Shown here piece after piece: positions 3,888-41,047 of a stretch of 64,000 nt of DNA (its first letter is position 1; each line of letters opens with the position of its first letter). The notes beneath the pieces are model-generated. The model was given only the letters and a program-made list of their open reading frames with translations. It searched no databases and had not been told where the DNA came from. The DNA lies in assembly GCF_013315695.1 (NCBI RefSeq), contig NZ_CP054353.1. One strand, given 5' to 3'. The DNA comes from Escherichia coli. GTDB lineage: Bacteria; Pseudomonadota; Gammaproteobacteria; Enterobacterales; Enterobacteriaceae. Made by a program: the position numbers and the translations under genes.

Positions 3888-3889
3888 TC

Positions 3890-6748
3890 CTAATCACGAT
3901 CGCGGAAGCTGTTCATCCCGGCGGATTGTCTGCGAATTTCTTCCCGTACAGCCTCCCCCACCATTCTGGCAAGGTCGCGCGGGTTCTGCGTCGCCACGTT
4001 GTGAAGATGAACGTGGATTTCCCCACCGAACACAGACGACGGTTCAGGAGAGCGCGAAGCCTCCCGGGTAGCCGGGGAGACTGGCGCCCACTGCTTAACC
4101 TCCACGGAACGGGAAGCATCCCGGGAGACCTCCGGAGGCACAGGCGAAACCGGAGGCATAACCGGTAGTCCTGGCGCAACAGTCGGCTCATTCCACTGCC
4201 CGCGAACAGCCAGCGCACGGGGGAGGTTTTTAAACACGATATCGCCGGGACCGATACGCTTGCGGGCTTCATGAAGCATGCCCGACGTATTACCCTCGAT
4301 ACCTTTAAGCCTGCGAAGAACGGCGCTGTTACCGCTGGTTATGCCGGGGGGATTGCTGGTTTTACCGTCATTCTGTGGATTACCATTCCCGTTGTTATTA
4401 TTGCTGACAGGAGCGGCCGGAGTGGGTACCCAGGACTTCTGAACCATTTTTTTCTGAACAGGGTCCCACTCCCACATAACCGGAGCCTTTGCAACTGCCT
4501 CAGCACGATTTTTCGCCCGCTCAACTTCAGAAGGGAGCACGCCGAGTTTTTCCAGCACCCATGCCAGGCCGTCCATCAACGCCTGAAGAGGAGTAAGCGC
4601 AAGCGATATCGCCCCGCTGAGCACGCGACCAAAAGTTTCCCCGACCGAGGCACACCGTTCAAGAGATTCATGGCTGGTCTGAACAGGTGTGAGTAACCGC
4701 CTGAACCAGTCATACACCGTGGACACCGCACCCGATACCAGATCAAACAGCGGCGCAAACTGAGCAACACCTTCACGAACAGGCGCAAGGCCAGCCCACA
4801 GCGCCCGGAATGTTCCGAGCATAAAAGCCTTAACCTGTTCCCAGTGACGCCATATGAGCAGCGCTCCACCGGCAAGGGCAGCAACCACGAGACCAACAGG
4901 ACTGAGAAGACCGGCAAGCGCCCCGCCCAGCACTGAAACCGCACCGGATACCATCCCCCACAGTGCCGGAAGGCCAGACAGGCGAAGGGCAAGACCACCA
5001 ACGCCAGTTGCAACAGAGGAAAACCCGCCACCAAGAAGCGCAGAGCCAAGCTGAAGTTTTGCAAAAATACCGGTCAGCACCCCGGAGGTCAGGGACAACG
5101 CCCCAAGGGCTGTCGTGGCCGCAAGAACACCACCGGCAACAATCGCCAGAGTACGCACCAGTTGCGGATTATCCTGAACCCATCCTCTGAGCCGTTCACC
5201 CCATGATACCGCTACCTGAACAAGTTCGCGGAGGTCATCGGTGACAAGGGCAACGACATCACTGCGTATACCGGAGAAGACACCAGACAGGCGATCGGCA
5301 TCACCGCCAAGGTTATCCCGCAGAACATCACCCATACGCCGGGCGGTTCCCTGCACCTGCCCCATACGGTCAGACACCGTTGCCAGCGAGCGGAGAAAAT
5401 CCGGGATCTGATCAACGGCCAGATCTTCGATGGGTGTGCCGAACAGCGCTATCGCCGCATTGGCTCGTTCCGCAGGATCCTGAATCTTCAGCAGCCCGGC
5501 AGCCGTTCGCTGCATTGCCTCGCGAGCAGCCGCGCCTCCGCTGGCAATCGCTGACAACATTTTTTCCGCATTAAGGCCAATCAGCCCATAAGCCTCAACG
5601 CTTGCTTTGGACATATCCGAGCCACGAATACTGAATTCCTTGACGGCATCGCCGGTTTTATCCAGGGCGAATTTCCCCTGCTGCGCCATGCTGACAAGCA
5701 GCGTCATGGTTTCAGAGCCGGAGAGCCCCATATTGCGGAAATGCGTGGAATACTCATGCAGAATTTCAGGAAGTTCGCCGCGCATTTCGGCGGACATTTT
5801 CTGCATGCCTGCCGCCATCAGGTCCACGGCCTCACCTGCATTTGCAGCGAGACCGTTTTTCAGCATGATGCCGGCCGCCTGAACCTGTTCAGCCACATTA
5901 CCGCCGGTGACCTGAGCAAGATCGATTGCCTGCCGTGTCACCCTCTCTAGTTCTTCAGTCCCTACAGTACCCAGTGCGCCAAGCGTGCTTTGCGCCGCAG
6001 CTGCCGCTTCGGAAATCATCGCGATATCCGTAGCCGCACCTGACGCACGGATGTTCTGAATCATACGGCTGTAGCGCTGGCCGTCTTCTGCGCTGCCTCC
6101 ACTCTGTGCCGCAATGAGCGCACCCTGCCGTTGCTCTTCAACAACAGGTGCAACCGCACGTCCGGCGGCGTACAGACCAGCACTGCCCGCTGCCATGGCA
6201 AGCGCACCGCGCTGGCTGAGTTTACCGGCGATATCCTGAACACGATCGTAACGTTGTTGTGCCTGCGTGACGCGCGCAAGCTGAGCCTGCTGGCGCTCAA
6301 GCTGATCGTTGTATTCCTGCGTTCGCCTGATTGCTTCTTCAGTGGTGCGGTTACTTCCGTCCGCCCGTATACCGTGAGACTCCAGCTCACGACCGGCTTC
6401 CCGTAGCCGGGACTGGTGAAGGGCGTAAACGGTATTAAGACGCTCAATCTTTGCAGTCAGTGAGCGGATAGCTTCCTGCTGTTTTTCCGTCAGTGTCGTG
6501 CCAGTACGCTGGACCTCCAGGAGGCGCTGAAGTCGCCCACGCGCCTCGTTCAGGCTGTTTTCAGTCGAGGCAACCTGCTGACGGGCACGGGAAAACGCAT
6601 CACTGCTTCGCTGGAGTGACTTAAGAGCGTTCTGCGTGGAGGAAAGAGATTCGGAAAGCGCGCCGGTCATTTCCCGGGCGCGCCTGACGGGTTGGGTGAG
6701 ACGGTCGACCGCAGTGAGGGCTACACGTATCTGGAGATTATTACTCAT
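3890..6748 (-). CDS. phage tail tape measure protein, P2 gpT-like
   Basis: long helical/Gly-rich ORF; track ORF starts at GTG 6802, ATG start (MSNNLQ) at 6748 overlaps the E' stop. Confidence 0.85.
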   Translation of the reverse strand: MSNNLQIRVALTAVDRLTQPVRRAREMTGALSESLSSTQNALKSLQRSSDAFSRARQQVASTENSLNEARGRLQRLLEVQRTGTTLTEKQQEAIRSLTAKIERLNTVYALHQSRLREAGRELESHGIRADGSNRTTEEAIRRTQEYNDQLERQQAQLARVTQAQQRYDRVQDIAGKLSQRGALAMAAGSAGLYAAGRAVAPVVEEQRQGALIAAQSGGSAEDGQRYSRMIQNIRASGAATDIAMISEAAAAAQSTLGALGTVGTEELERVTRQAIDLAQVTGGNVAEQVQAAGIMLKNGLAANAGEAVDLMAAGMQKMSAEMRGELPEILHEYSTHFRNMGLSGSETMTLLVSMAQQGKFALDKTGDAVKEFSIRGSDMSKASVEAYGLIGLNAEKMLSAIASGGAAAREAMQRTAAGLLKIQDPAERANAAIALFGTPIEDLAVDQIPDFLRSLATVSDRMGQVQGTARRMGDVLRDNLGGDADRLSGVFSGIRSDVVALVTDDLRELVQVAVSWGERLRGWVQDNPQLVRTLAIVAGGVLAATTALGALSLTSGVLTGIFAKLQLGSALLGGGFSSVATGVGGLALRLSGLPALWGMVSGAVSVLGGALAGLLSPVGLVVAALAGGALLIWRHWEQVKAFMLGTFRALWAGLAPVREGVAQFAPLFDLVSGAVSTVYDWFRRLLTPVQTSHESLERCASVGETFGRVLSGAISLALTPLQALMDGLAWVLEKLGVLPSEVERAKNRAEAVAKAPVMWEWDPVQKKMVQKSWVPTPAAPVSNNNNGNGNPQNDGKTSNPPGITSGNSAVLRRLKGIEGNTSGMLHEARKRIGPGDIVFKNLPRALAVRGQWNEPTVAPGLPVMPPVSPVPPEVSRDASRSVEVKQWAPVSPATREASRSPEPSSVFGGEIHVHLHNVATQNPRDLARMVGEAVREEIRRQSAGMNSFRDRD

Positions 6749-28836: not shown

Positions 28837-29157
28837 TCAGGCTTTTTCTAGCGTACACAGCAATGGATGCTCATTCTCCCTCGCGTACTTGTTCACCATC
28901 GCCACTTTGGTTTCTGCAACCTCGGCGGTAAAGACTCCGCAAATGGCCTTCCCCTGGTAGTGAACAGCGAGCATCAATTGCGTTGCACGTTCTACATCAT
29001 AAGAAAAGAATTTTTGTAACACGTCAATAACAAACTCCATCGGAGTGTAATCATCATTGACTAATATCACTTTATACATAGATGGCGGTTTTAGCGCGTC
29101 GCGAACTTTTTCTTCCGCCAGTTGATCAAAGTCCAGCCAGTCGTTCGTTTTACCCAT
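28837..29157 (-). CDS. clpS: Clp protease adaptor ClpS
   Basis: 106 aa [42 protein letters not shown]. Confidence 0.95.
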
Positions 29158-29328
29158 TGTCAGTTATCATCTTCGGTTACGGTTATCGGCAGAACGCCCT
29201 GCCGCTGACAAGAGCTTATTTGCCTGACCAATCTACTCCACATGATAGATAACTATCATTTATAACATCTCATTGATTAGTCTTTATTTTTCATTGTGTT
29301 ACAAATAACAGCTCTGTCAAAAACAGCG

Positions 29329-29355
29329 AAATTAACTACACCATTAACTACACCG
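29329..29355. repeat. 27-bp direct repeat AAATTAACTACACCATT(A/G)ACTACACCG, left copy (right copy 40368-40394); candidate integrase binding or att sequence
   Basis: two copies, one mismatch, each followed by clustered CGAACAA motifs (29356-29395 and 40400-40510). Confidence 0.5.
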
Positions 29356-30293
29356 TTTCACGAACAATATCGAACAACCACGAACAAAGATCAACACGCT
29401 TTAACCGTTATCATTTTCCGGCTATCCGTTATGAAGCTGGTGGATGTTCCCCGATATGGGGATCCCCACCTACCGGAATTTTTGCCAGGTTAAATGTTAA
29501 CCTCTGCCCTGTTAACATTTTTACCAAAAAGGTAGTTAACATTTTTTGCACGCAACCAGATGAATCATAAAGAAAAAATCAACAACAACGCTTCATCAGG
29601 CAGTTAACATGTTAACTACTACGAAACGGTAATTTTTTCTCTGCGTGAGAGGGGGCGCGGTGTCCAGCTTATTCGTTGTTCGTGGCTAACCACTCCCCCC
29701 CCATGCCGGATTTTTTTTCCGGTTAACTGTTAATCAGGCTGGTGGGTTTTACATACCCTTGATCACCGTAATGATGATCCAGATCTGCACATTTCCACCA
29801 ATGGTGGAAAAGCCCACAGCAGGCCGCCCAGCCTCCACCAATGGGGTAAAAGCATCAACCGTAACGAAAGTCGTTATGGTTGCCACCGATACCCCAAATT
29901 TGGGTATCACGAGTAAGCCCCAAAATCTGGGTGTTACTCTTACCACCCAAACTACGGGTAGTTTCCGTAGTTTCATGGTCGAGTTGCAGATCTGCAACTC
30001 CCCCATTAACCACAGGCGAATTTCCGCCTTCGGTCATTCCTTAATCATCTGCGTAATCATAATGATTATTCAGCAAGCGCAATTTTGCGCTTTGCTTAAA
30101 GTTCAGCGAGTTACCGCGCCGACTTCCTCAAATTGAGGTTTCCGAAAATATCAGCGGGTTAGCGATTAAGCTGATCATTAATTAAACTGCGAAAATTTCG
30201 TAGTTTGTGACTGTCTTTCAGGCAGCTTGTTAACAGTCCTCAGAAGCGAGGGATGTAGCCACCCATTTTTGGTCCGTCGGGAATATCAACCAG

Positions 30294-30575
30294 TTACCGC
30301 CGCAACCGCTCCGGCTTCTTCCAGTGGTACGTTATTTTCTCCTTCTCCCGATACATCTCCACGCGGCGACGGTAGGCCAGCAACTCAAGAACTCTGGTTC
30401 GTATGTTGCGCATATCCACGCCATTAAGTTCTATACCATCACGGCGCATCACCTCCGCAACAACACGCGCATAATTTTCAGCGGTCACGCTGTCCGGCTG
30501 CGTGGCCTGTTCGTCAACCTGCTGGCTGATTCCGGCAACGCGGCGGATTAATCCCAGTATTTCGGCTTCTGTCAT
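30294..30575 (-). CDS. hypothetical protein (93 aa) next to the left cos site
   Basis: ATG with G-rich SD; no family recognised. Confidence 0.45.
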   Translation of the reverse strand: MTEAEILGLIRRVAGISQQVDEQATQPDSVTAENYARVVAEVMRRDGIELNGVDMRNIRTRVLELLAYRRRVEMYREKEKITYHWKKPERLRR

Positions 30576-30610
30576 TGTGCCCCCATCGTTCTGATAGTCT
30601 GGTGTCGTCG

Positions 30611-30840
30611 GGTCCTTCCTGGAATTATGGCCCGTTACGGGGCGGCGACCTCGCGGTTTTTCGCTATTTATGAGATTTTTTGAGGGGGTGGTTGTTGTTT
30701 AATTGTTTGGTATATCTAATTGATAAGTAAGGTAAAAATAAAATAAATACAACAACCTTACGATGTATTTTGATGTCATTAATGTGAAAAAATTCAATGA
30801 TATCAAATGGTTTTGTAAAAACACATGGTTGTTGTATCGC
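30611..30840 (+). other. lambda-type cos site, copy 1 (cosQ-like, cosN GGGCGGCGACCT at 30640-30651, cosB-like region pointing rightward)
   Basis: GGGTCCTTCC..GTTACG-GGGCGGCGACCT-CGCGGTTTTTCGCTATTTATGAG closely matches remembered lambda cos; three GGTTGTTGT repeats (30690, 30749 inverted, 30828) as candidate TerS sites. Confidence 0.6.
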
Positions 30841-31008
30841 GTATTTGATGGCGTAACAGAAAGTGATTTTTAACTTTACCGCTCTGTAACTACGGATTAT
30901 TCCATGCTGGCACGGAGAACGGCTACGGCATGACGCCACCCAGCCTATACAGCACAGTAAAGCCGATAAATTGTTAATCACGCGCAGCAATGCGTGTGAT
31001 TTTTGCAC

Positions 31009-31206
31009 ACTTCCGGTTAACGGGTACGATGTCCGGTTTTAGTGTCTGTTTTTTGCGCATGTCCGGTTCATAGAAAGCATGTTTTTATATTTTTCATATG
31101 GTTAACTTGCAGAGAAACCGGACATGGATCCCGGAAAATTTTCATAAATAGTGAAAACGCGCGAGGTCGCCGCCCCGTAACGGGTCCATATGCCGGAAAG
31201 GACCCG
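31009..31206 (-). other. lambda-type cos site, copy 2, inverted (cosN on the minus strand at 31164-31175, cosB-like region pointing leftward)
   Basis: minus strand reads GGGTCCTTTCCGG..CCCGTTACG-GGGCGGCGACCT-CGCGCGTTTTCACTATTTATGAAAATTTTCCGG, near-identical to remembered lambda cosQ-cosN-R3; three ATGTCCGGTT repeats (31029, 31059, 31116 inverted). Confidence 0.65.
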
Positions 31207-31208
31207 TA

Positions 31209-31233
31209 AAAAAAAGCCGGATTTCTCCGGCCT
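31209..31233 (-). terminator. rho-independent terminator ending the island capsid operon
   Basis: minus strand GGCCGGAGAAATCCGGC followed by T8, directly after the 137-aa gene stop. Confidence 0.55.
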
Positions 31234-31237
31234 TGTC

Positions 31238-31651
31238 TCAGATGGTTTTCAGTATGCGATCGATGTCGCCGTCATCGCCCTGGTTTCTGCCATCGTACGC
31301 CATGCCAGCTGATACGGCTTGCGGGCTGTGCATGTCCATAAAGTTTTCAAAGGCTGCGGTAAGCTCTGGTGCAACCTTTGGGCGCTCCTGCTCTATGGTC
31401 ATGTTCAGGATTTCACGAGCATTATCGACGCTAATACATGGCACGTTTGCCATTGCACGTAACAGCGGCTGATAGTCGTTATGTTCATGAAGCGCCATAA
31501 TCGCATCAGCGCGCGGCTTGTCCTGTTCTTCCAGTTTGTTGAGTTGATATACGGCCTCGTAGGTTGATAAACCTCTGTCAGCCATTGCCCGCGCTTCTGC
31601 TTTAAATTTACTCGCCAGCGGTAGCGCCATGATGCTTTCATTCGTTGCCAT
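31238..31651 (-). CDS. hypothetical protein (137 aa), last gene of the capsid operon
   Basis: ATG with AGGGGAA SD; no family recognised; candidate packaging-redirection factor by position only. Confidence 0.5.
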   Translation of the reverse strand: MATNESIMALPLASKFKAEARAMADRGLSTYEAVYQLNKLEEQDKPRADAIMALHEHNDYQPLLRAMANVPCISVDNAREILNMTIEQERPKVAPELTAAFENFMDMHSPQAVSAGMAYDGRNQGDDGDIDRILKTI

Positions 31652-31663
31652 CGTTTCCCCTGC

Positions 31664-31999
31664 TTATCGCGCCAGCGGCTGAACGGATACGCCAGAACCC
31701 GCAAAGGCGGCGCATTTTTTCGCGTCAGTGTCGGCGCTCTCAGGCCAGTTTACGGCGGCGATATTAAATATCCCCGTCTTGTAACACTGTGCTGATTTCT
31801 GCTTTGACGTGTCCACGGGGTACGAAGTCAGATAAACAGCCTTGCCAGATTCCTGACCATCCCACGGCTTAAACTCGCCATTGTCCGCCAGCATCAGCGG
31901 GGTAAATTCCTGAATAACGCCAGCATCAGCGGCAAAATGTACCAGCGTCGTGGATACCTGCTGACTGCCTGCAAATAACTCAATGTATGGAGTGTCCAT
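31664..31999 (-). CDS. head decoration protein, lambda gpD-like
   Basis: 111 aa; shares TPLMLD, WDG, YK(S/T)G.F, WPE, AFAG motifs with remembered lambda gpD (110 aa). Confidence 0.65.
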   Translation of the reverse strand: MDTPYIELFAGSQQVSTTLVHFAADAGVIQEFTPLMLADNGEFKPWDGQESGKAVYLTSYPVDTSKQKSAQCYKTGIFNIAAVNWPESADTDAKKCAAFAGSGVSVQPLAR

Positions 32000-32011
32000 A
32001 GAATCCCCCCG

Positions 32012-33067
32012 TTAACCAATTTTGACGGTAACAAATTTGCGAATATCTGCCGGAACCGGCTGCGGTGCGCTGTGCGTCTGCACGTACTCAATCGCCGGAT
32101 CGCCGTCCTCAATCCAGTTTTTCGGGTAAAACATGTTTTGCGTTGCGCCCGTTCTTACCGCTTCCTGTTCCAGGATCGCACCATAGGCCACCAGCCCTTT
32201 ATTGTTGGTGTTGCCCAGGACCAGCAAATCAGGCTCAAGGAAATATTTTTCTGTGCCGTCGCTGTCAGTGTATTTGCCGGAATAGACGATAAGGGCCAGA
32301 TCACCAAGATAGCCTTTAAAGCTCACCACTTCGCCCAGGTTTTTACATGCCAGCTCTGCGGCGGATTCTGAACCACGGGAGAGATCGTACAGTTCACGGA
32401 ATTTTTTAAAGCTGCGTAACATGCGCCATACATCAACGCCCATAATCATGACGTTTGCGGGGCAACCTGCCTGATCTGCGTATAGCTCAATGTCATAGAT
32501 TGGGTCGTGTATGTCTTTGTCCTGCTCTGACCATTTTTTACCGTCGGCCTGCTCTATGATGTTTTTTTCCGGTATCTTCCAGTCGATTTCATAGCGCTCT
32601 ATGCCTTCGCCCTCAATGATGTTTTTTCCGGTCGTTACCGCATTTACCGCCAGCCATTCCACGCGCGCTTTAATGGCGTTTATCTGGCGGCGCATGTTGC
32701 CAGTAATCAGGCGCATACGGCGGTAGGTAGGGTCGTTAAGCTGTGCTGGATCTTCTCCAGCCATGCGCATTATTGTTTTTAATGGATCGATTTCGTGTTT
32801 TGGCTTCATGTAGCCAGGGCGAATAATGCTTGTTTCGTACCCTTTATCGCGCTGAACCTGGCTACCCACCATAGGCGAACAAAACGCCGACATAGTGACT
32901 TCTTCAATATCCAGGTTATCTAACATGATGTCCTGTGTGTTGAATGTCGCCACGTTCGGGAAAAACAGCGCGGTAAACAGCGGACTGAATTTAAATTCCG
33001 CAATATCCTCGCGATTCAGGTACGCAAAAAGCTGGTTAGTGTTAAGTGCTATTGCTTTTACTGTCAT
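32012..33067 (-). CDS. major capsid protein, lambda gpE family
   Basis: 351 aa; collinear similarity to remembered lambda gpE (FKF.PLF..LFF, PGY(V/M)KPKHE, DP.YRR.R, YPKNW..GDPA, SAP); start overlaps the upstream stop (TAATG). Confidence 0.85.
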   Translation of the reverse strand: MTVKAIALNTNQLFAYLNREDIAEFKFSPLFTALFFPNVATFNTQDIMLDNLDIEEVTMSAFCSPMVGSQVQRDKGYETSIIRPGYMKPKHEIDPLKTIMRMAGEDPAQLNDPTYRRMRLITGNMRRQINAIKARVEWLAVNAVTTGKNIIEGEGIERYEIDWKIPEKNIIEQADGKKWSEQDKDIHDPIYDIELYADQAGCPANVMIMGVDVWRMLRSFKKFRELYDLSRGSESAAELACKNLGEVVSFKGYLGDLALIVYSGKYTDSDGTEKYFLEPDLLVLGNTNNKGLVAYGAILEQEAVRTGATQNMFYPKNWIEDGDPAIEYVQTHSAPQPVPADIRKFVTVKIG

Positions 33068-33273
33068 TATTCACCCCCGTGAACCTGATTCATACCCAGC
33101 GCCGCGCGTAAATAGGCGCGTACCTGCCAGCCTGTTGACGGCTCAACCATCGCCAGCGGATCAAGTCCTGCCGCAATGCCTGCTTTTACGTTCTGCTGGT
33201 GGCGTTCCTTGAGCGCCTTCACGATGTCGGGGCTTATGTACACCGAAACACCGCCTTTTTTCTCTTCAGCCAT
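33067..33273 (-). CDS. hypothetical protein (68 aa), first gene of the capsid operon
   Basis: ATG with AAGAGG SD; translationally coupled to the capsid gene. Confidence 0.5.
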   Translation of the reverse strand: MAEEKKGGVSVYISPDIVKALKERHQQNVKAGIAAGLDPLAMVEPSTGWQVRAYLRAALGMNQVHGGE

Positions 33274-33302
33274 AGTAAGAAATTCCTCTTTGACTTAAAA
33301 AA

Positions 33303-33357
33303 TCATAACTGGATGTTCATCCAGTTATGATTATAATCATGATTGCATTTTGTGCAA
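33303..33357 (-). promoter_or_regulatory. promoter of the island capsid operon with a 28-bp palindromic operator
   Basis: minus strand TTGCAC-N16-TATAAT immediately followed by perfect palindrome TCATAACTGGATGAACATCCAGTTATGA. Confidence 0.5.
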
Positions 33358-33527
33358 TGATATTGAGTTGCGTTGCAAATTATGAAATTATTATCCCGAT
33401 CATGTGTGTCAGTGCACCAAAAAACCTCATATGCAAAAGCCCGATAAGCCACCTCTGACCTTATCGGGCTTTTTTTGGGCGCAAAAAAGCCGGATTGCTC
33501 CGGCTGTGTGGTGTGGTTCTGGTATTC

Positions 33528-33776
33528 CTACTCTGCTAATTTGCTCAGCCCCATGTCTGCGTAAGTGCGATTTACTGCATTTCTCAGGTCTGCATAGTTC
33601 TCCGTTGGCGGCTCCGGTGGCCTCTGTGCCTTCCTGGAACATTCCAGCCGTCGCATCGTGATGTGATGCCGTTCCTTGTCTGTCTCCACCAGCATCATGA
33701 CTTCACCCCATCGCGCCGCCGCCCTCCGGTAAAATCCTTTCGCTTCGAGTTCTTCCGCTATGCGGTCATGTACCAT
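33528..33776 (-). CDS. small regulator, possibly PerC/Pch-family transcriptional activator
   Basis: 83 aa from ATG 33776 with GAGGGGG SD; LEAKGFYRRAAARWGEV resembles the PerC-family core as remembered; weak call. Confidence 0.35.
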   Translation of the reverse strand: MVHDRIAEELEAKGFYRRAAARWGEVMMLVETDKERHHITMRRLECSRKAQRPPEPPTENYADLRNAVNRTYADMGLSKLAE

Positions 33777-33786
33777 CGTCACCCCC

Positions 33787-34197
33787 TCAGAACGGAATAT
33801 CATCACCGTAAGGGTCATCGCCTCCCGCTGGTGGCTGATTACCCTGTGCGCCTGTGGTTTTGCGTCTGTTCCCGCCAGGACGTGCCGCACGGGCACTGAT
33901 TACGCTGTCTGCAATAACCTGATAACCCTGACGCGTCTCCCCGTTCTGTCCGGTCCACTGGCTTACCTGCATCGTGCCGGATACGCTGGCAACGTCGCCT
34001 TTTTGATGTTTAGCCAGGAAGTCGGCCTGCTTACCAAATGCGATGACCGATAGCCATAACGTCGCCTGTCCGTCCTGTGCCTGACTGCATGGCAGTGATA
34101 CCGCCATACGCGCCAGCGTCATCGGTGTGCCCTTGCTGGTCTGTTTTACCTGCGGGTCGTCCACCAGCCGACCGTAAGCCGCTATCTGTGCTGTCAT
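33787..34197 (-). CDS. single-stranded DNA-binding protein (SSB-like)
   Basis: 136 aa; OB-fold pattern (W..V.AFGK.A, KGD.V.V.G, W....G..R) and C-terminal acidic tail ...DDPYGDDIPF typical of SSB. Confidence 0.65.
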   Translation of the reverse strand: MTAQIAAYGRLVDDPQVKQTSKGTPMTLARMAVSLPCSQAQDGQATLWLSVIAFGKQADFLAKHQKGDVASVSGTMQVSQWTGQNGETRQGYQVIADSVISARAARPGGNRRKTTGAQGNQPPAGGDDPYGDDIPF

Positions 34198-34445
34198 GAT
34201 TCCACCTCTCCGGTTTTAACGTTGATGGTTGTTACCTGTTCCGCTTCGGCAATCTCCCGTTCTGTCAGCGTGGCAAAGTTTGCCGCCGCCGTGGTCATGA
34301 ATGCGCTTATCAGGTCGGGATGTTCCTTCGCGTATCCTTCCCGCGTGTGGCGGTCTATCGTTCTGATTGCCACCTTTAAGGTGTGCTCAGTCATGTCTAA
34401 CGCTTTATATTTTGGCTCTGTTCTGTCTCTGCGTGTTCTGGTCAT
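34194..34445 (-). CDS. hypothetical protein (83 aa)
   Basis: ATG 34445 with GAGGTGG SD; stop overlaps the SSB start (ATGA). Confidence 0.4.
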   Translation of the reverse strand: MTRTRRDRTEPKYKALDMTEHTLKVAIRTIDRHTREGYAKEHPDLISAFMTTAAANFATLTEREIAEAEQVTTINVKTGEVES

Positions 34446-34469
34446 TTGCCACCTCAATTTATATATATA

Positions 34470-34805
34470 GAAACATGTGCGGGTTATGCGGGTTATTGGG
34501 TTATCTTAGCGTGCTAACCATTTTTTATCCTTTTATATCAGTATTTTGCAAAACACCCTGTTTATTATTTGCCCACCACGTAACCCGCAAAACGCTCAAA
34601 ATAACCCGCAAACGGGGTTTTTTCTGCGGGTTACGCATGACTGTCCGGTGTTACTTCAGTTATTCGCCTGCGGGTTATAATCGTGCTTTTGCGGGTTATA
34701 AATGCCCTTTTGCGGGTTACGTGCGGGTTATTGGTTTCCTTTATATTCATGCACTTAATACACTTATACACAGGATAACCCGCATAACCCGCAATTTTTT
34801 TCCTC
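34470..34805. repeat. iteron array, candidate replication origin of the island
   Basis: at least 12 copies of GCGGGTTAT / ATAACCCGC in both orientations within ~330 bp of AT-rich DNA, directly downstream of the primase-replicase gene. Confidence 0.65.
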
Positions 34806-34815
34806 ACACAGGGGA

Positions 34816-36939
34816 TTAATCTTCATCATCAGGCTGGAACATCAGCACGTAAAAAACATGCTGCTTACCCCCAATCTTGCCCAGCGCCTTTTTTTTGTAT
34901 CGGCGATCGCTTCCCTTCTCCAGCATTCCGGCAGCATCCAGGGCACGCGCAAAATGCGCCGGATTAAATCCCTTCGCTATCTCACTCTCAAACACGTGCG
35001 GGAACGTGTAATAGCGCATCTCGTCATCTTCGTTGCGAATGCTCCCTTTTCTGTATCCGGCAAGCTCTTTAATCGGTAAATCACGCTCATCTGTATTGGG
35101 GTACGGAAGGTAGCGGCTAAACCCAAACGACGACAAAAACGCCTCAGCCTGTTCAACCATCTGTTTAAATTCCCTGTTACCCGTGCCGAACTCCTTCACC
35201 CAGGCATTAAAGTTATGCTGTATCGCGTCGCGGCATTCCTGCACGACCCAGCCAGTTACATGACCGGAAAGCACAAGCGCGGCCTCCAGTATGGCGAAAC
35301 GTTCACCCACGCGGTGGACCTGCTCGCCGTAGCTCTCCGGTATCAGGTTGCGCCACCGTTCGCGGCATTCCCTTACCGTATCCTTTGCCTCCTGCTGGTG
35401 GCCTGCCAGCCATTTAACCCACTCACGACCCGCCGCCCCGTGATTTGCTGTCCAGGCATCCTTTAACGCGTCAGCATGTTCCTTACCGTTGCTGTATTCG
35501 TGAAATTTCGTGGCTTTTTCCATCGGAACGTTAAGCAGTCGGACAAGCTGCCCCGCCTTAACTTTTATCCCCTCACTTTTGAGGAATGTCTCAACGTCCA
35601 TTTCTCCGGTGCTGATTGCCACCGTTCGCCAGTGTTTGATCTCCCTGTTGCCGCCATCCTTCGCCCCCTGCAATTTCCCTGAACCGTTAAACAGCGTATA
35701 AGCAGACGTTGACACTTCCCGCGCATTTCCGGCCTGGCCTATCTCATCCAGTGGTAAAAGCCCGTCATTATGGGCCTCGGCCTCATTGGCAATACCTAAC
35801 GCCGTGCCGTACCAGGTCAGCCGCTGCGCGTCCGGCTCTCCCCATAAACTTGATGCGATGTTCTGCGTGGTGGTCTTACCTGCCGATGACTGTTCGAAAA
35901 GATGCACCCCGAAGCCGTCAGCACCCACAAGGCCAATTAAAGGCGCTGCCAGTGACGTTGCCACACCCAGCATCATTGAGGCATTACCGCCAGCCAGCCG
36001 CGCCACACTCTCGCGCCAGCCCTCCGCCGTACCCGCCACGGAATAACCGTTAATCGCGGCGCTTTTTCCGGTAAACAGGATCGGTTTTTCAGAATCACCA
36101 ATGATCGAACCGTCCGGCATGATGTACGCGCCAAAATGCCAGCCCGTTGTTGTGCTTAACTGCCATTCCTCATGGCTTCCGCTTAACTGCATCCAGTCCG
36201 CCAGGATTGCCCTGTATTTGCCGTTGGTTGTCACGTTCAGCCCGTGATCTTTAAGTAACCGCCAGCCGTCACGGTCGCCGATACCACCACACGGGATCGC
36301 CATTGTGATGACTTCATGATTTGCTAATTTTTTCCAGCGCATGACGCGGTAATGCTCTTTACCGATCGTCCCCGTTCCCAGTAGTTCAAGCGGAGAACAT
36401 AACCACGTCTCAGGCCGGATAATTTCGCCTGACTGCTTATCCACTTTGGGCGTTACCCAGAAAACACCATCGGCGCGACTTTCAACGCGTGGCTTTAATT
36501 CGTCATCGCTATGGCTTCCGGTATCTTTTTTCTTTACCGGAAACTCAATAACCAGACCATCAGAAAGATTCTGCCGCTCACGGGCCAGATATTCGCGCCA
36601 GTTCTCCACCTCCTGACCGTGCATTCCATCAGGGTAAAAATTTGCATCCTGTACGCCTGCCGCCGCCAGCTTCTGACCAATCGCCTTGATCATTACTGGC
36701 TCAAGATGTCCGGCCCTGAATATGCGTACTGATTTTCGGCCTTCCGGCACAATTTGCAGCTTATCCAGTTCGGCAAGTTGTTGCTCTCCAAGCCAGACAG
36801 GAGGCACGTTATCGCCAGCCAGTCGCCCGTCCTGTTCCTGCCACTGTTTCGCATGTGCCCAGGCATCACTACCCGCAAAAATGATGACTTCCGTCATTTT
36901 GTCACGTGGCTGGTGTTTTAAATTTGGCGCTTTTTTCAT
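34816..36939 (-). CDS. primase/replicase (P4 alpha-like or PICI Pri-Rep-like)
   Basis: ~707 aa from ATG 36939; Walker A-like SSAGKTT; position next to the iteron ori; ATG overlaps the upstream stop. Confidence 0.75.
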   Translation of the reverse strand: MKKAPNLKHQPRDKMTEVIIFAGSDAWAHAKQWQEQDGRLAGDNVPPVWLGEQQLAELDKLQIVPEGRKSVRIFRAGHLEPVMIKAIGQKLAAAGVQDANFYPDGMHGQEVENWREYLARERQNLSDGLVIEFPVKKKDTGSHSDDELKPRVESRADGVFWVTPKVDKQSGEIIRPETWLCSPLELLGTGTIGKEHYRVMRWKKLANHEVITMAIPCGGIGDRDGWRLLKDHGLNVTTNGKYRAILADWMQLSGSHEEWQLSTTTGWHFGAYIMPDGSIIGDSEKPILFTGKSAAINGYSVAGTAEGWRESVARLAGGNASMMLGVATSLAAPLIGLVGADGFGVHLFEQSSAGKTTTQNIASSLWGEPDAQRLTWYGTALGIANEAEAHNDGLLPLDEIGQAGNAREVSTSAYTLFNGSGKLQGAKDGGNREIKHWRTVAISTGEMDVETFLKSEGIKVKAGQLVRLLNVPMEKATKFHEYSNGKEHADALKDAWTANHGAAGREWVKWLAGHQQEAKDTVRECRERWRNLIPESYGEQVHRVGERFAILEAALVLSGHVTGWVVQECRDAIQHNFNAWVKEFGTGNREFKQMVEQAEAFLSSFGFSRYLPYPNTDERDLPIKELAGYRKGSIRNEDDEMRYYTFPHVFESEIAKGFNPAHFARALDAAGMLEKGSDRRYKKKALGKIGGKQHVFYVLMFQPDDED

Positions 36940-37235
36940 TTCTGCTCTCTCCACGCGGCAATCATGTTTTTCAGTTCCTGTAGTTTTTTATCCACATCCA
37001 CACGTGACACATGGTTATTTCTGGAAGTCGGGATTTCCCGCCTGAATCTGCTAATAAAGATCTCCACGTTCAGCGAACTATGAAATGAATAGCCATCACG
37101 AATAAAATACACACGGTCAAACATCAGTTCTTTTACCGTTACTCTGTTGCCGTTCTTATCCAGATAAATAGCGCCGGGGATAATTTTGGGGTGTGCATAA
37201 CCGCTGGCAGTCAAGCCAGATAAATATGTTCTCAT
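36936..37235 (-). CDS. hypothetical protein (99 aa)
   Basis: ATG start; coupled to the primase. Confidence 0.45.
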   Translation of the reverse strand: MRTYLSGLTASGYAHPKIIPGAIYLDKNGNRVTVKELMFDRVYFIRDGYSFHSSLNVEIFISRFRREIPTSRNNHVSRVDVDKKLQELKNMIAAWREQK

Positions 37236-37241
37236 GATTAT

Positions 37242-37562
37242 TTATCCCCGATTTGAATCAGTATTCGCTTTCTTTATAGCATTTAATGCATTTGTGGCAT
37301 TTTCAATGGTGCACCGTAACGAAATATCAAACTGCCCAAGCATTGCCAGTAACAAACCGATATTACCCATATCAATGCGCATGGCCTTTTCGTCATATTC
37401 CTCATTTTCTGACGCATACCACATCAGGCTACCAATTGACGCAATACCCATTGATATATTGTCAGTAGCCCCATCCGCAGCGGAATAAACTTTTTTAGCA
37501 ATATCATGCTCACAGTTAAAATGCGGATTAATCAGGTACTGGTAATTGGTCATGTCAGGCAT
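37242..37562 (-). CDS. hypothetical protein (106 aa)
   Basis: ATG start; first gene of the leftward operon. Confidence 0.45.
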   Translation of the reverse strand: MPDMTNYQYLINPHFNCEHDIAKKVYSAADGATDNISMGIASIGSLMWYASENEEYDEKAMRIDMGNIGLLLAMLGQFDISLRCTIENATNALNAIKKANTDSNRG

Positions 37563-37839
37563 GGCACACCCCCTGACGAATACGGGCGGCGAATACCATC
37601 ACGCAGCCAGCCGGGGATTGCTGGCGTGCTTCCTGTTCGCTGCTGGCCTCAATGGTAATCACGCGCGGTTGTGCCGTGCTCAGGGCGATAAAACGCCAGA
37701 TGTATTTATTCAGGTTGTGCGAGTCCCGCCCTTGCGGGTGTGTGGTATGATTTAACATAGCTACCTCGATACTGTTGCTATCGTTGGTTGTTAGACGCCC
37801 TGCATGTGTTGCGAGCACTGCGGGGCGTTGCTCTTTCAG

Positions 37840-37885
37840 GTGTATTTCACCTTTGCTTTTTAATTTACTCACTGGTGAAATACAC
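37840..37885. promoter_or_regulatory. operator-like perfect 12-bp inverted repeat GTGTATTTCACC-N22-GGTGAAATACAC in a divergent promoter region
   Basis: lies between the divergent 106-aa gene and the small + strand gene. Confidence 0.45.
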
Positions 37886-37951
37886 TTCAAGCCTTTTTTT
37901 ATCATTTTTTTTGCGTATACTGACATACACCAATTTTTAGGAGATCCAGAA

Positions 37952-38131
37952 ATGGCAACTGGTGCAAAGAACGCAAAATCACAAATGACAACTGTCAGAA
38001 TCCCACATGAAGTAATGGATGATATTGAGCAACTTAAAGAACCTGGCGAAAGTACCGCTGGTTTTTTAGTTACTGCCGCAAAAGGCGAGATCAAACGCCG
38101 CCAGCGCCGCAAGGCCAAAGAATCAGAATAA
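37952..38131 (+). CDS. small DNA-binding protein, possibly ribbon-helix-helix (59 aa)
   Basis: ATG with AGGAGA SD; TTVRIPHEVMDDIEQL resembles an RHH beta-strand/helix; basic C-terminus. Confidence 0.4.
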   Translation: MATGAKNAKSQMTTVRIPHEVMDDIEQLKEPGESTAGFLVTAAKGEIKRRQRRKAKESE

Positions 38132-38188
38132 TCACTATCAGCGCCGTGGCGTGAGGTACTCCGGCGCATTGCTTTACAGGTCAGTACT

Positions 38189-38398
38189 ATGAGCAAAAAA
38201 CACCGATCAGCAGATGAGATTTTTGCAGAACAACGAAGATTGCTTTTGCAAAGTATCATTTCACGCCAGCAAGAGAAGGCGCGAGCTAAACAAATGCCAC
38301 CAAATACAGAACCAGCGCCTACAAGATTTGCGCTTGATGATTTTCTCGATAAACACCCCAGGGTAATGAAAGCAAACAAAAACCGCCCACCAGCCTGA
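38189..38398 (+). CDS. hypothetical protein (69 aa)
   Basis: ATG start; followed by a terminator at ~38441-38468. Confidence 0.35.
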   Translation: MSKKHRSADEIFAEQRRLLLQSIISRQQEKARAKQMPPNTEPAPTRFALDDFLDKHPRVMKANKNRPPA

Positions 38399-38440
38399 TA
38401 GCGGCTATCATCCCCGTGCTTATGTTTAGTGTTTCCAAAC

Positions 38441-38468
38441 TGGCGACCTCCCAAGGTCGCCTTTTTTT
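38441..38468 (+). terminator. rho-independent terminator after the rightward small-gene pair
   Basis: GGCGACCTCCCAAGGTCGCC followed by T8. Confidence 0.55.
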
Positions 38469-38488
38469 TATGTGCCATTGTCACCACC

Positions 38489-38698
38489 TCAAGCGGCCTT
38501 GCCTGAATTAATGCGTTCGCGGTTTTTGACCCACGCCACAACCTCAGACTTAACCCAGCCAACAGAACGACCGCCGAGACTGATACGGGAGGGGAAGCGG
38601 CCCTGCTTTTCCATCTCGTAACGAGTTGTGCGGCAAACGCCTGTTAGCTCTCTGCATTCTTTTTCGCGGATTACGCGATCTTCATTTATTTCACGCAT
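38489..38698 (-). CDS. alpA: AlpA-family transcriptional regulator / excisionase-like
   Basis: 69 aa from ATG 38698; helix-turn-helix pattern (CRELTGVCRTTRYEMEKQGRFP...GGRSVGWVKSEVVAWV) and position next to int. Confidence 0.65.
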   Translation of the reverse strand: MREINEDRVIREKECRELTGVCRTTRYEMEKQGRFPSRISLGGRSVGWVKSEVVAWVKNRERINSGKAA

Positions 38699-39107
38699 AC
38701 AAAAACCTACATAAAAATTACGTATATAAACTTTTCTCTTAGCTGTAGATATATGAGATCGGATATTACTTAGATTCTTTTTCACCTCTTAAATTAAAAA
38801 CACAACCATGCTAAAGGCTTTGTTCGCTAAGGTTCGTAGAAGCTCGTTAGTGTTTAAAATCGTGTCACGAGTTTTTAAGCGACGCAACAAAAAATGTCGT
38901 TATTTGGCATGACACCTGAATTACCTCATTAAAAACAAATAGATAAACCATCAGGTGTTGGAACAATCAAGAAACAGAGAATAAGAACTAAGAAGAAGAC
39001 ATTTCAAATTTTTTCAATACTTGACACATATAAATCGTCGATATTTGCCGATATTCGACGATTTATTTTAGAGGGCCATTTTTCGCAAGAAAAACAGCCG
39101 TAATTTG

Positions 39108-40346
39108 TCAAGAATTTTGGGAGTAAATTCGCGGGGTCATAACAACGATTTTTTCATCATTGTTCTGGAGAAGCTCGAGACGCTCAACCCATAGATTAAG
39201 AGCGTCACGTTTTGCATCGAGATAACGGGAGTGATTATAGACTCGTTGCATTCCTGGCAACTGGTGCGCGGTTAGCTGCTCCACTACATGAGGATCCACG
39301 CCTAAATCGTTCAGCATCGTTGTAAACGTGTGCCGGATGTCGTGCAACGTCCAGGGGGCTTGATTAATGCGTCTGTGTGCCGTTCTTCCGTACTCTGATA
39401 CAGATGATTGCCCTTTCAGTTCTCCGAGTAATAAGCCCGTGTGTCGGTTCTGCTCCACCAGCTTCGTTACGAACGGCAAGATCGCTTCCGGTATTGGCCT
39501 GAATATTGCTACCTTCGTTTTGCTGTGTTCTTTCGGCACAGTCCAGAGCATTTCTTTAAAATCCCATTCCTGGACCTCAGAGCGTCTTAGCTCAGTGGTA
39601 CGGCATCCGAAGACAATCAGGAGGCGAATCAGGGCGCTGTAGTACGGTGTGTAAATTTTTTCATCCAGGGCGCGTAGTAATTCCCCAAGCTCCTTGTTTG
39701 TTAGTACGCGCTCGCTTATTTCTGCTTTTTTCCCAACATCACCTACAACCATATCATCTAGAACGTTGGTAATTGCGTAGCGTCGTTTGCGGCAGTACTT
39801 AAGCGCCTGCTTGCATACCTGTAACAAAAATCCTGCTGATACCGGATTACGCATAGCAAGCTGATCAAAACAGGTCAGCCAGTGGCGTAGCTCGCATTTT
39901 TCCAGCGGCATAGCACCAATATGGCTGATTATGTGTGTATTGATCCGGCTTTTCAGAGATTCGTAATCTGTGCGCTTTTCCTTCGCGTACGATTCAAGCC
40001 AGTAAGTGAGCGCTTCCTTAACCGTAACAGGTGATAACGCTTCCTGTACGGTGTGATTAAGCTCATGGCGTGGATTTTTACCCTCAGCAAGCCAGGCGCG
40101 ACACTGCGACGCTTTTTCCCTGGCTGCTTTCAGGCTCAAATCTGGATAATTTCCCAGCCTCAGACGTTCAGGGGCTACCTTCCTGCCTGTTCCGGCCCTG
40201 TAAGTGAAATACCAGGTTAACAGGCCATTGGTTGAATGCCTTACGCTAAGGTTGCCACCATCATTAAAAAAGGTGTTTTTTGTGGTTGGTGATCCGCTTA
40301 ATTTTCGTAAAAGAGTGTCGCTAAGTCTATGAATTGCCCTGCTCAT
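39108..40346 (-). CDS. tyrosine site-specific integrase (P4-type)
   Basis: 412 aa; C-terminal catalytic motifs (R..TELRRSE, HDIRHTF, Y near the C-terminus); at the island edge. Confidence 0.9.
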   Translation of the reverse strand: MSRAIHRLSDTLLRKLSGSPTTKNTFFNDGGNLSVRHSTNGLLTWYFTYRAGTGRKVAPERLRLGNYPDLSLKAAREKASQCRAWLAEGKNPRHELNHTVQEALSPVTVKEALTYWLESYAKEKRTDYESLKSRINTHIISHIGAMPLEKCELRHWLTCFDQLAMRNPVSAGFLLQVCKQALKYCRKRRYAITNVLDDMVVGDVGKKAEISERVLTNKELGELLRALDEKIYTPYYSALIRLLIVFGCRTTELRRSEVQEWDFKEMLWTVPKEHSKTKVAIFRPIPEAILPFVTKLVEQNRHTGLLLGELKGQSSVSEYGRTAHRRINQAPWTLHDIRHTFTTMLNDLGVDPHVVEQLTAHQLPGMQRVYNHSRYLDAKRDALNLWVERLELLQNNDEKIVVMTPRIYSQNS

Positions 40347-40750
40347 GTTTCGAATTTCCGGTCATCAAAATTAACTACACCATTGACTACACCGAGCATC
40401 GTACAAGGGCGAACTGTGACGAACAAGGGCGAACAAGAAAAACGAAATTATCCTTTATAATCATAGAAATAAATGAGATACCTACACCATGACGAACACC
40501 CACGAACACTAACTGATAAATAACTATCATCTATCGTTGGCATCAGCGACATCTGTCACATTCCTGTCAATAGCGTTAACTGCTTCAAATTTTTGATTCA
40601 TACCTGCCCCCTGGCCCCTGTCAAATGCTTGACGGCTCGCCCTAATTCTCTAAATTGTATTTCTAGAGTTGGCGAGGTTTTGAACAGCCCCCTCTCTGAC
40701 CCCGGTTTATTCCATCTTACTTGTATAAGATTTGCGAAGGATGTCGAAGC

Positions 40751-40975
40751 ATGGAAAAGGGTACTGTTAAGTGGTTCAACAATGCCAAAGGGTTTGGTTT
40801 CATCTGCCCTGAAGGCGGCGGCGAAGATATTTTCGCTCATTATTCCACCATTCAGATGGATGGTTACAGAACGCTAAAAGCTGGACAATCCGTTCAGTTT
40901 GATGTCCACCAGGGGCCAAAAGGCAATCACGCCAGTGTTATTGTGCCCGTCGAAGTAGAAGCGGCAGTCGCATAG
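40751..40975 (+). CDS. cspD: cold-shock-like protein CspD
   Basis: 74 aa MEKGTVKWFNNAKGFGFICPEGGGEDIFAHYSTIQMDGYRTLKAGQSVQFDVHQGPKGNHASVIVPVEVEAAVA. Confidence 0.95.
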   Translation: MEKGTVKWFNNAKGFGFICPEGGGEDIFAHYSTIQMDGYRTLKAGQSVQFDVHQGPKGNHASVIVPVEVEAAVA

Positions 40976-41047
40976 CTCTTCTGTCTCATTGTGTACATCC
41001 TAAAGGCAAAATGCCAGCCCGATCGGCTGGCATTTTTATCTCAAAAA

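Follow-up and report, generated by a model that had tools for sequence, protein, structure and literature searches.

How do the phage-inducible chromosomal islands (PICIs) of Gram-negative bacteria stay silent, and how is this silence overridden? The founding paper on these elements states that their global repressor is unclear and names AlpA as the only known activator-type regulator (PMC6092414), and a later survey describes the zone considered here as one of Bro-network genes and immunity RNAs (PMC10111431). We address the question for an island in a window of 64 kb (64,000 nucleotides) of an Escherichia coli-type chromosome. Two small genes of this island, which code for a protein of 59 aa and a basic protein of 69 aa, are transcribed rightward, opposite to all other notable open reading frames (ORFs) of the island, which lie on the minus strand. 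A sequence-only reading of the window had pointed out this arrangement correctly and had seen in it either the master repressor or switch of the island, or an addiction or anti-phage cargo module. Our analyses suggest that the 59-aa protein is probably an autoregulated repressor of the icd/primase operon, which acts at three operators in the manner of P22 Mnt and Arc and is encoded antisense within an eta/kil-like frame. In the following, we describe the protein, its putative operators and the frame in which it is embedded, and weigh this proposal against its alternatives.

A predicted ribbon-helix-helix protein at a conserved position

The 59-aa protein falls into the NCBIfam family NF041551 (YlcI/YnfO; E 9.2e-18, 64 bits against a cut-off of 30, residues 9-50), and RefSeq labels homologues in the same way. 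Homologues that are 50-98% identical to it are found throughout Enterobacterales. It also matches phrog_949. By contrast, no Pfam family is reached at threshold and no Arc or Mnt Pfam match is found at E ≤1, and searches of PDB sequences with either the protein or its 46-sequence profile returned nothing meaningful. The sequence-only reading had proposed structure prediction for both small proteins. The AlphaFold2 model of the 59-aa protein, computed as a monomer from an alignment of 46 diverse homologues, has a predicted local distance difference test score (pLDDT) of 87 and consists of an extended N-terminal strand, a helix at residues 19-28 and a second helix at residues 35-58. The structures that match it best are those of CopG, omega and Arc. 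The model and these matches bear out the ribbon-helix-helix (RHH)-like N-terminus noticed earlier, and confirm, at the level of predicted structure, an RHH fold with strand-helix-helix topology.

A tblastn search of 50,697 phage genomes with the 59-aa protein gave no match, and its gene is therefore not a typical phage gene. In the literature, we found neither a function for YlcI/YnfO proteins nor an RHH repressor in Gram-negative PICIs, most subscription papers being outside the coverage of this search.

To place the gene in its context, we scanned one genome per GTDB species and obtained 67 loci from about 30 genera of Enterobacterales. Wherever the flanks are present, the order is constant: the primase and an icd-like gene point leftward, the RHH gene points rightward and is followed by a variable slot, and alpA and the integrase gene again point leftward. 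In most loci, about 194 bp separate the start of the icd-like gene from that of the RHH gene. EcCICFT073 has the same layout; there, RefSeq lists two proteins encoded opposite to the rest of the island, C_RS30120 (YlcI/YnfO) and C_RS30800 (hypothetical, 57 aa). These small genes lie within the EcCICFT073 equivalent of the eta-like frame described below and are called only in the current RefSeq annotation, which may explain why they were overlooked.

Three putative operators and a covarying β-strand

Upstream of the RHH gene, the sequence-only reading had reported a perfect inverted-repeat operator. The repeat is present, with arms GTGTATTTCACC at 37840-37851 and GGTGAAATACAC at 37874-37885 that are complementary at 12/12 positions and separated by 22 nt (17 nt at 88% when extended), but it comprises only two of three related sites, the third having been missed. 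Taken alone, the repeat is modest evidence, though non-random: first-order Markov simulations yield a mean of 0.28 perfect 12-nt inverted repeats (spacer ≤40 nt) per window, and the real window has eight distinct loci, most of which are terminator-like. Its weight comes from conservation across loci. When the upstream regions of related loci are aligned, the two arms appear as O1 and O2, two of three related 11-mers of the form GTG-N5-CAC (O1-O3; Table 1); beyond these three, no such site occurs in the window. Counted from the ATG, O2 occupies position -77 (±1 nt) in 64 of the 70 related upstream regions, and O3 keeps to -32. O1 is found at -99 to -122, in inverted or direct orientation to O2, and its N5 always equals that of O2 in the same locus. 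The N5 of O3 agrees with that of its own O2 at 5/5 positions in 38 loci and at 4/5 in 18 (64 loci in total), whereas unrelated pairs agree at 1.5 positions on average. The first base of O3 is C, T or A, not G, in nearly all recognised loci (G in two), which suggests that O3 is a conserved weaker site. We also considered that the repeat might form a hairpin, as RNA or as a cruciform, and rejected this, since the GTG/CAC ends never vary, some loci have direct instead of inverted repeats, and the third site is without a pairing partner.

The N5 core varies between loci, and it does so together with the protein. We distinguish 22 classes, each of which is paired with essentially one sequence of residues 10-18; for instance, SQMTTVRIP goes with AAATA (16 loci), SQQLNARFP with AATCG (11 loci) and SKKLEARVP with TCAGC (8 loci), whereas SQALKARVP goes with TGGCC in one representative locus and, by reading of its sequence, in EcCICFT073. 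The adjusted mutual information (AMI) between N5 class and protein clusters at 90% identity is 0.87 for RHH residues 8-19 and 0.67 for residues 20-52, compared with 0.23 for AlpA, 0.35 for Icd and 0.31 for the integrase. Likewise, a single operator class can be common to AlpA proteins as little as 23% identical. Among 52 columns of the protein alignment, residues 14 and 12 associate best with the N5 class (0.69 and 0.61, respectively), and Arg16 is invariant. Arc reads DNA with the outward-facing strand positions Gln9, Asn11 and Arg13, and in our alignment, which matches TVRIPHEVMDDI with NLRWPREVLDLV of Arc, residues 12, 14 and 16 take these positions. We predict that residues 12 and 14 of the β-strand read the N5 core, with Arg16 in the same outward-facing register; this alternation would fit a dimer whose two-stranded antiparallel sheet enters the major groove.

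Some loci differ in the protein encoded here. In three of them (L002, at 5726-6031, L058 and L065), the RHH protein exists in a version of about 100 aa with an added C-terminal helical stretch (...GENPLVSSLDALAQVEKIGVKA...), and this extension may be an oligomerisation domain. In two others, which are E. coli islands (L071 and L073, both at 3764-3943), an unrelated 59-aa protein (VSTHKSERRGNPPFQFRLDP...), RHH-like by eye, is encoded at the same position, and its gene has a palindromic operator of its own, TGTGTAATGTGTAATTACACA. The repressor module appears to be exchangeable as a unit.

Putative divergent promoters, a structured leader and a terminator

The cross-locus alignment also places the operators on two putative divergent promoters. 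In the leftward promoter, which resembles PLE of P4, the -35 TTGA abuts O2 in 56/56 non-identical loci (as TTGAAG, TTGACG, TTGAGG or TTGACA), and a -10 of the form TAnnnT lies exactly 17 nt from it, with T1 conserved in 47, A2 in 42 and T6 in 41 of the 56. In the rightward promoter of the RHH gene, the -10 reads TATACT in 44 of the 56 loci and TATAAT in 3; a recognisable -35 is missing, and a T-rich tract lies upstream instead. With O2 in the spacer of the leftward promoter and O1 past its -10, the geometry is predicted to occlude RNA polymerase.

The leader of the leftward operon contains two hairpins. In an RNAalifold analysis of 33 loci, 10 of the 12 predicted pairs are maintained through two-sided changes, and no Rfam family matches them. 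They are kept in all operator classes, with a conserved CUCUAACCACAA between them, and in many loci the loop of the second hairpin contains the GGAG of the first leftward gene.

At its other end, the rightward unit is closed by an intrinsic terminator, as the sequence-only reading had stated: a hairpin of eight pairs followed by T8 (Table 1), which is conserved in L002, L073, L078 and L079. It should work one-directionally, because no U-run follows it on the minus strand. Its GGCGACC motif had to be considered as a cos remnant as well, an interpretation that we rejected, given the true lambda-type cosN sites at 30640 and 31164.

An antisense frame that stays open

What the sequence-only reading had overlooked is a long conserved open frame on the opposite strand. 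This eta-like frame of 307 codons starts just past the alpA stop codon, traverses the two small genes and then the promoter region in antisense, and finishes in an Icd/Kil-like protein. The last part is also the first gene of the leftward operon, a 67-aa ORF that matches NCBIfam NF033153 (E 1.8e-19) and phrog_6196 and is weakly similar to the C-terminus of P4 Eta/Kil (E 0.024). A long frame from the vis/alpA stop to a Kil/Icd-like end, as in the P4 type, is thus present in the window. It is free of stops over the RHH gene in 71/71 loci and over the 194-nt intergenic region in 59 of 70, whereas the two remaining minus frames have, on average, 3.6 and 5.5 stops in those stretches. It seems to be the openness of the frame that is conserved. 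Its product in the window has no Pfam domain and is low-complexity by eye. The equivalent in EcCICFT073 is an ORF of 428 aa with, by eye, a Bro-N-like N-terminus and the same Icd-like end, and in other loci, gene callers annotate long ORFs with ASH, AntA or pRha domains here.

The 69-aa gene and its cassette

The two small genes had been presented as a pair, but they do not form a fixed one: most loci lack the 69-aa gene, and in some it stands behind a first gene of unrelated sequence. A word-indexed search of 5.8 billion proteins found five clusters of its family, all from E. coli, and a profile search of 1.84 billion representatives found 14 family proteins of 56-92 aa. These combine a variable N-terminal helix with a conserved C-terminal motif, (K/R)FALE(D/A)F(L/V)xK(Y/H)PRRLKxGKNRPPG. 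The 57-aa protein of EcCICFT073 is apparently a distant member, the FALEQFL motif being common to both by eye only. In our set of 67 representative loci, all from outside E. coli, no family member was found (0/67). The slot between the RHH gene and alpA, in which the gene resides, ranges from 109 to about 1600 bp; among the loci with mapped alpA, 22 have a slot of less than 300 bp, and 0/22 of these contain a fitting rightward ORF of ≥40 aa. The longer slots hold leftward Bro-N, AntA or pRha-type genes, not defence genes.

The 69-aa protein has no match in Pfam, NCBIfam, PADLOC or the PDB and no PHROG function, and a Pfam search with 19 members of its family gave scattered chance matches only; the 59-aa protein is likewise without a match in PADLOC. 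The predicted structure of the 69-aa protein, a long helix at residues 8-35 and a short one at residues 48-55 (pLDDT 80, predicted template modelling score 0.40), is neither a globular fold nor that of a known toxin. Its gene yields a ratio of non-synonymous to synonymous substitution rates (dN/dS) of 0.17-0.44, to which the antisense frame gives similar values, so that purifying selection is unproven. Nevertheless, the ORF is likely to be a real gene, because its ATG is conserved, its C-terminus is conserved up to the stop codon, and it has been called independently. It would be co-transcribed with the repressor gene, and the role we favour for its product is that of a protein-binding accessory of the quiescent state.

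The 57-nt spacer in front of the 69-aa gene forms a cassette with it. This spacer, which contains a hairpin, is near-identical in EcCICFT073 and in the loci where the first gene is unrelated (L071, L073), and it precedes every member of the small-ORF family (L071, L073, L076, L078, L079). In L078 and L079, cassettes of spacer and small ORF are arranged in tandem, and they can also precede the RHH gene. The nucleotide conservation of the spacer exceeds that of both flanking genes, and it might serve as a junction for recombination or as an RNA element.

A candidate repressor switch and its alternatives

From the features computed above (the fold, the three sites, the covariation, the promoter hexamers, the open frame, the synteny and the one-directional terminator), we infer a switch that involves binding, repression, autoregulation and read-through; the role of the 69-aa protein is likewise inferred. 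As long as the island is quiescent, the RHH protein would be produced from its own promoter and would bind, probably as dimers, to the three 11-bp GTG-N5-CAC sites, limiting its own level via O3 (negative autoregulation). With O1 and O2 both occupied, the operon of the icd/kil-like gene, the DUF4222 gene, the primase and SSB would be off. The centre of O2 lies about 48 bp upstream of the point where the RHH gene's transcript is presumed to begin, and O2 may in addition stimulate this -35-less promoter. A helper phage would turn on alpA, and leftward transcription from the alpA promoter would run through the eta-like frame into the replication genes. On its way, the transcript would pass the hairpin at 38442-38461, which has no U-run in this direction, and would be sustained by translation of the eta-like frame. 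Such read-through would bypass the repressed promoter, as transcription from P4 PLL bypasses immunity. It would also meet the repressor gene head-on and silence it, and the leftward promoter would then open, too.

Several points weigh against this proposal. Helper phage activates EcCICFT073 via AlpA, and over-expression of AlpA alone induces the island (PMC6092414), so that the repressor is not its sole lock. By analogy with P4 and in the light of the published AlpA data, AlpA-driven transcription probably bypasses the RHH repressor; such a bypass is consistent with the published induction, and it would make the protein an immunity repressor but not the only master switch. Of the earlier suggestion of a master repressor or switch, the repressor part is well supported computationally, by the RHH fold, the operators on both divergent promoters and the covariation, but the 'master' part is not. 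Furthermore, the operators lie within 110 bp of the gene, and part of the covariation could therefore be co-inheritance, the sequences are phylogenetically related, and the AMI is not a probability. Linkage alone cannot explain the pattern, however, because in each locus the same core stands at three separate sites and varies along with two particular residues. The spacing of O1 and O2 varies (22, 23, 25, 35 and 45 bp), which leaves a cooperative geometry uncertain. Moreover, a generic sigma-70 scan flagged neither promoter, and both emerged only from the cross-locus alignment; the scan missed the rightward one because it has no -35. Finally, dN/dS cannot separate sense from antisense (0.08 versus 0.15 for the RHH gene, 0.27 versus 0.28-0.46 for the 69-aa gene), and it is no proof that the small ORFs are coding, because the wobble positions of the sense and eta-like frames coincide.

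The last point leads to an alternative in which the small plus-strand ORFs are not functional units at all: only the eta-like gene on the minus strand would be conserved, and the 11-mers would be bound by AlpA, a replication protein or a helper protein, or would be structural. The similar dN/dS in both frames, the antisense frame open in 71/71 loci and the slot of strain SaT040, in which the Prokaryotic Genome Annotation Pipeline (PGAP) has an Icd-like pseudogene and no plus-strand gene, would fit this. Yet it is the plus strand whose product has a confident RHH model with RHH structural matches and belongs to a curated NCBIfam family that is also found in prophages without this context, whereas the eta-like product has no Pfam domain and looks low-complexity. 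The Shine-Dalgarno sequence and ATG of the RHH gene are conserved, the N5 class tracks RHH residues 12 and 14 and not AlpA, Icd or Int, and the invariant GTG/CAC ends and the unpaired third site are unlike a hairpin. We consider this alternative very improbable. If the RHH protein is accepted as real, it might still be chiefly an activator or timing factor, for example for firing the leftward promoter or its own after induction. Some RHH proteins do activate transcription, such as AmrZ, or P22 Mnt at Pmnt, and the absence of a -35 from its own promoter, together with the position of the O2 centre about 48 bp upstream of the inferred start, is of the activator type. The placement of O2 within an optimal 17-nt spacer and of O1 just past the -10 is, however, an occluding one, and O3 overlaps the protein's own -10, so that we give this possibility a small chance.

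The remaining alternatives concern the 69-aa protein. That it is the toxin of a type II toxin-antitoxin pair, with the RHH protein as its autoregulating antitoxin, is scarcely credible: the partner gene is absent from 67/67 representative loci and from the 22 slots of <300 bp, members of its family stand behind an RHH-like gene of unrelated sequence in L071 and L073 and can also be in tandem or come before the RHH gene, no toxin family is matched in Pfam, NCBIfam or PADLOC and nothing in the PDB, the model shows one long helix and a tail rather than a toxin fold, and the operators lie on the promoter of the replication operon. On the same grounds (the empty short slots, the absence from all 67 loci, the unrelated first gene and the lack of a PADLOC or toxin match), the addiction or anti-phage cargo module that the sequence-only reading had suggested for the pair finds no support. 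A version in which only the 69-aa gene and its slot are accessory cargo, for helper interference, superinfection exclusion or host modulation, apart from the switch, is unlikely. Prophage repressor operons often carry such cargo genes, lambda rexAB being one example; the slot is variable in length, and the combination of a variable N-terminal half, a conserved C-terminal motif and tandem cassettes is a typical arms-race pattern. Against this, no PADLOC or PHROG function is assigned, the longer slots hold Bro-N, AntA or pRha-type genes in leftward orientation rather than defence genes, and the conserved 57-nt junction and the constant place beside the repressor suggest a link to the switch.

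Under the repressor proposal, the 59-aa protein is a candidate, open to test in an established model system, for the repressor that has been 'missing' from the satellite islands of Gram-negative bacteria. The repressor, its three sites and its two specificity residues bear on how these widespread islands stay silent and how AlpA overrides this silence, and also on the mutual immunity of co-resident islands. In addition, the cognate protein-operator pairs represent a natural library of orthogonal small repressors. Extending the proposal further, we tentatively suggest, as a possibility rather than a probability, that Gram-negative PICIs including EcCICFT073 have an unrecognised protein immunity. 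At its centre would be a hypervariable RHH repressor, encoded antisense within the translated eta-like frame downstream of alpA, with two β-strand residues as the main determinants of its operator specificities, of which there would be 22 or more. Helper-induced transcription driven by AlpA would bypass the early promoter under its control and, being convergent, would also stop its synthesis, so that two overlapping genes on opposite strands would form a toggle; the operator classes would be immunity types that allow several islands to coexist in one cell without cross-repression.

The island and its setting

The window contains macAB, cspD, clpSA and tRNA-Ser, and the island, an EcCICFT073-type PICI of about 11 kb, is inserted between clpS and yljB/cspD, bounded by a 17-bp direct repeat (Table 1). 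Capsid-forming PICIs occupy the same site in strains SaT040, 042 and 2017.17.03CC, and matches to at least part of the region are present in about 1,060 of 5,426 complete E. coli genomes. The island shows what defines Gram-negative PICIs of the EcCICFT073 type: int, alpA and primase are co-directional, its length is within ~10-15 kb, it has flanking repeats and cos, and it is without lysis and tail genes. Besides the genes in Table 1, the minus strand encodes a 106-aa ORF, SSB, a PerC-like protein, an E-type capsid protein and a decoration protein. EcCICFT073, which serves as the model PICI of Gram-negative bacteria, has been published as carrying a pair of cos sites (named cos1 and cos2), with which the two cosN sites in the late region of our island agree, and the gene sizes and gene order of its late module are identical to those of EcCICFT073. 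Because of the two cosN sites and this late module, we regard the island as a cos-type PICI that depends on a lambdoid helper. An Rfam search of positions 29000-41000 at E ≤1 found only a weak cspA element adjoining cspD, and no C4 or isrK immunity RNA.

Two further observations concern the neighbourhood of the small genes. RgdR (ECs1581/C1493), which has been published as regulating motility and type III secretion (PMC3378721), is of the same family as the DUF4222 protein. The RGD motif is at residues 20-22 in the CFT073 copy of the DUF4222 protein, and the copy in the window, which is 35% identical, has PGA at this place. We considered whether RgdR (PMC3378721) might be the 59-aa gene and rejected this, as it corresponds to the 99-aa DUF4222 protein. 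Between the int stop codon and alpA, at 39030-39066, there is a perfect 12-nt inverted repeat, ATAAATCGTCGA-N13-TCGACGATTTAT; it lies in the expected promoter region of alpA and may be a site of helper or AlpA action.

Table 1. Coordinates of the features discussed, in positions of the 64-kb window
Feature	Position	Strand	Remarks
59-aa gene (RHH)	37952 (ATG) to 38131 (stop)	plus	GGAG Shine-Dalgarno at 37940-37943, eight bases before ATG
Operator O1	37840-37850	plus	GTGTATTTCAC; left arm of the repeat; ~+5 to +15 of the inferred leftward promoter
Operator O2	37875-37885	plus	GTGAAATACAC; right arm of the repeat; fills the -35/-10 spacer of the leftward promoter
Operator O3	37920-37930	plus	CTGACATACAC; overlaps last two bases of the RHH gene's own -10 and the likely start site
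Inferred leftward promoter (P4 PLE-like)	37862-37890	minus	-35 TTGAAG (reverse complement of 37885-37890), 17-nt spacer with O2, -10 TAAATT (reverse complement of 37862-37867)
Inferred -10 of rightward promoter (RHH gene)	37916-37921	plus	TATACT
Leader of leftward operon	37767-37828	minus	two hairpins, arms 37795-37804/37819-37828 and 37767-37771/37779-37783
Intrinsic terminator of rightward unit	38442-38469	plus	GGCGACC-TCCCAA-GGTCGCC at 38442-38461, 8 pairs (6 G-C), then T8
Eta-like open frame, 307 codons	37555-38478	minus	ATG at 38478, 10 nt past alpA TGA; Shine-Dalgarno GAGGTGG overlaps alpA stop
Icd/Kil-like ORF, 67 aa	37555-37758	minus	first gene of leftward operon; C-terminal part of eta-like frame
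69-aa gene	38189 (ATG) to 38398 (stop)	plus	basic: 15 K/R versus 8 D/E
57-nt spacer	38132-38188	plus	hairpin GCGCCG (38141-38146)-N15-CGGCGC (38162-38167), then ACAGG-N8-ATG; cassette with downstream small ORF
alpA (P4 vis-like)	38489-38698	minus	Pfam Phage_AlpA, E 5.9e-16; convergent with the small genes, immediately upstream of eta-like frame
Integrase (int)	39108-40346	minus	
DUF4222 protein, 99 aa	36936-37235	minus	
Primase	34816-36954	minus	
Direct repeat, 17 bp	29329-29345 and 40368-40384		AAATTAACTACACCATT; bounds the island
Lambda cosN, two perfect copies	30640-30651 and 31164-31175	plus and minus, respectively	GGGCGGCGACCT; island late region, opposite orientation

Comparison with known systems

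In its way of working, the proposed switch is most like that of P22 Mnt and Arc, a resemblance that is structural and organisational only. Mnt and Arc use one operator of 17-21 bp, whereas the window has three 11-mers of flexible orientation. They are phage-borne, while the RHH protein is satellite-borne, belongs to the YlcI/YnfO family and is encoded antisense inside an open eta-like frame. The RHH protein omega of pSM19035 binds contiguous 7-bp heptads, in contrast to 11-mers spaced 22-45 bp apart, and is unrelated in sequence family and setting. The closest relatives by family are YlcI (DLP12) and YnfO (Qin) of E. coli K-12, which belong to the same NCBIfam family, YlcI having the same RFP-helix pattern. 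However, ylcI in DLP12 (L081, 4252-4446) adjoins a cosN and runs divergently to nohD, a small-terminase homologue, and its upstream region is free of GTG-N5-CAC sites, a context quite unlike that of the island gene.

Among satellites, Stl and Rpr of Gram-positive PICIs, the pathogenicity islands of Staphylococcus aureus (SaPIs), are larger helix-turn-helix repressors that are inactivated by binding helper proteins. They, too, are divergent regulators beside the integration module, with a replication operon that is silenced until the helper acts (PMC6092414). Their derepression is brought about by a helper protein, whereas the published trigger for the type of island in the window is activation via AlpA.

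The surroundings of the gene, finally, are those of P4. There, eta starts at the stop codon of vis, contains the constitutive promoter PLE and ends as Kil, and its translation permits read-through from the upstream, regulated promoter PLL (PMC10111431). The window shares alpA/vis, a stop-coupled long frame with a Kil/Icd-like end and an internal promoter, and the primase operon that follows. Unlike P4 Eta, which has an ASH domain, the eta-like product has no Pfam domain. In P4, we saw no convincing antisense RHH ORF, its two plus-strand ORFs (93 and 102 aa) being judged by eye only. Immunity in P4 is conferred by the CI RNA acting on seqA, and it is the position of CI that the RHH gene and its operators take in the window; the system belongs to neither the P4 nor the P22 family. 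Its two components, an RHH repressor-operator switch and a P4-type nested early region, are of known kinds, and what is unusual is that the specificity classes are so many and that the gene is embedded antisense in a frame whose openness is conserved.

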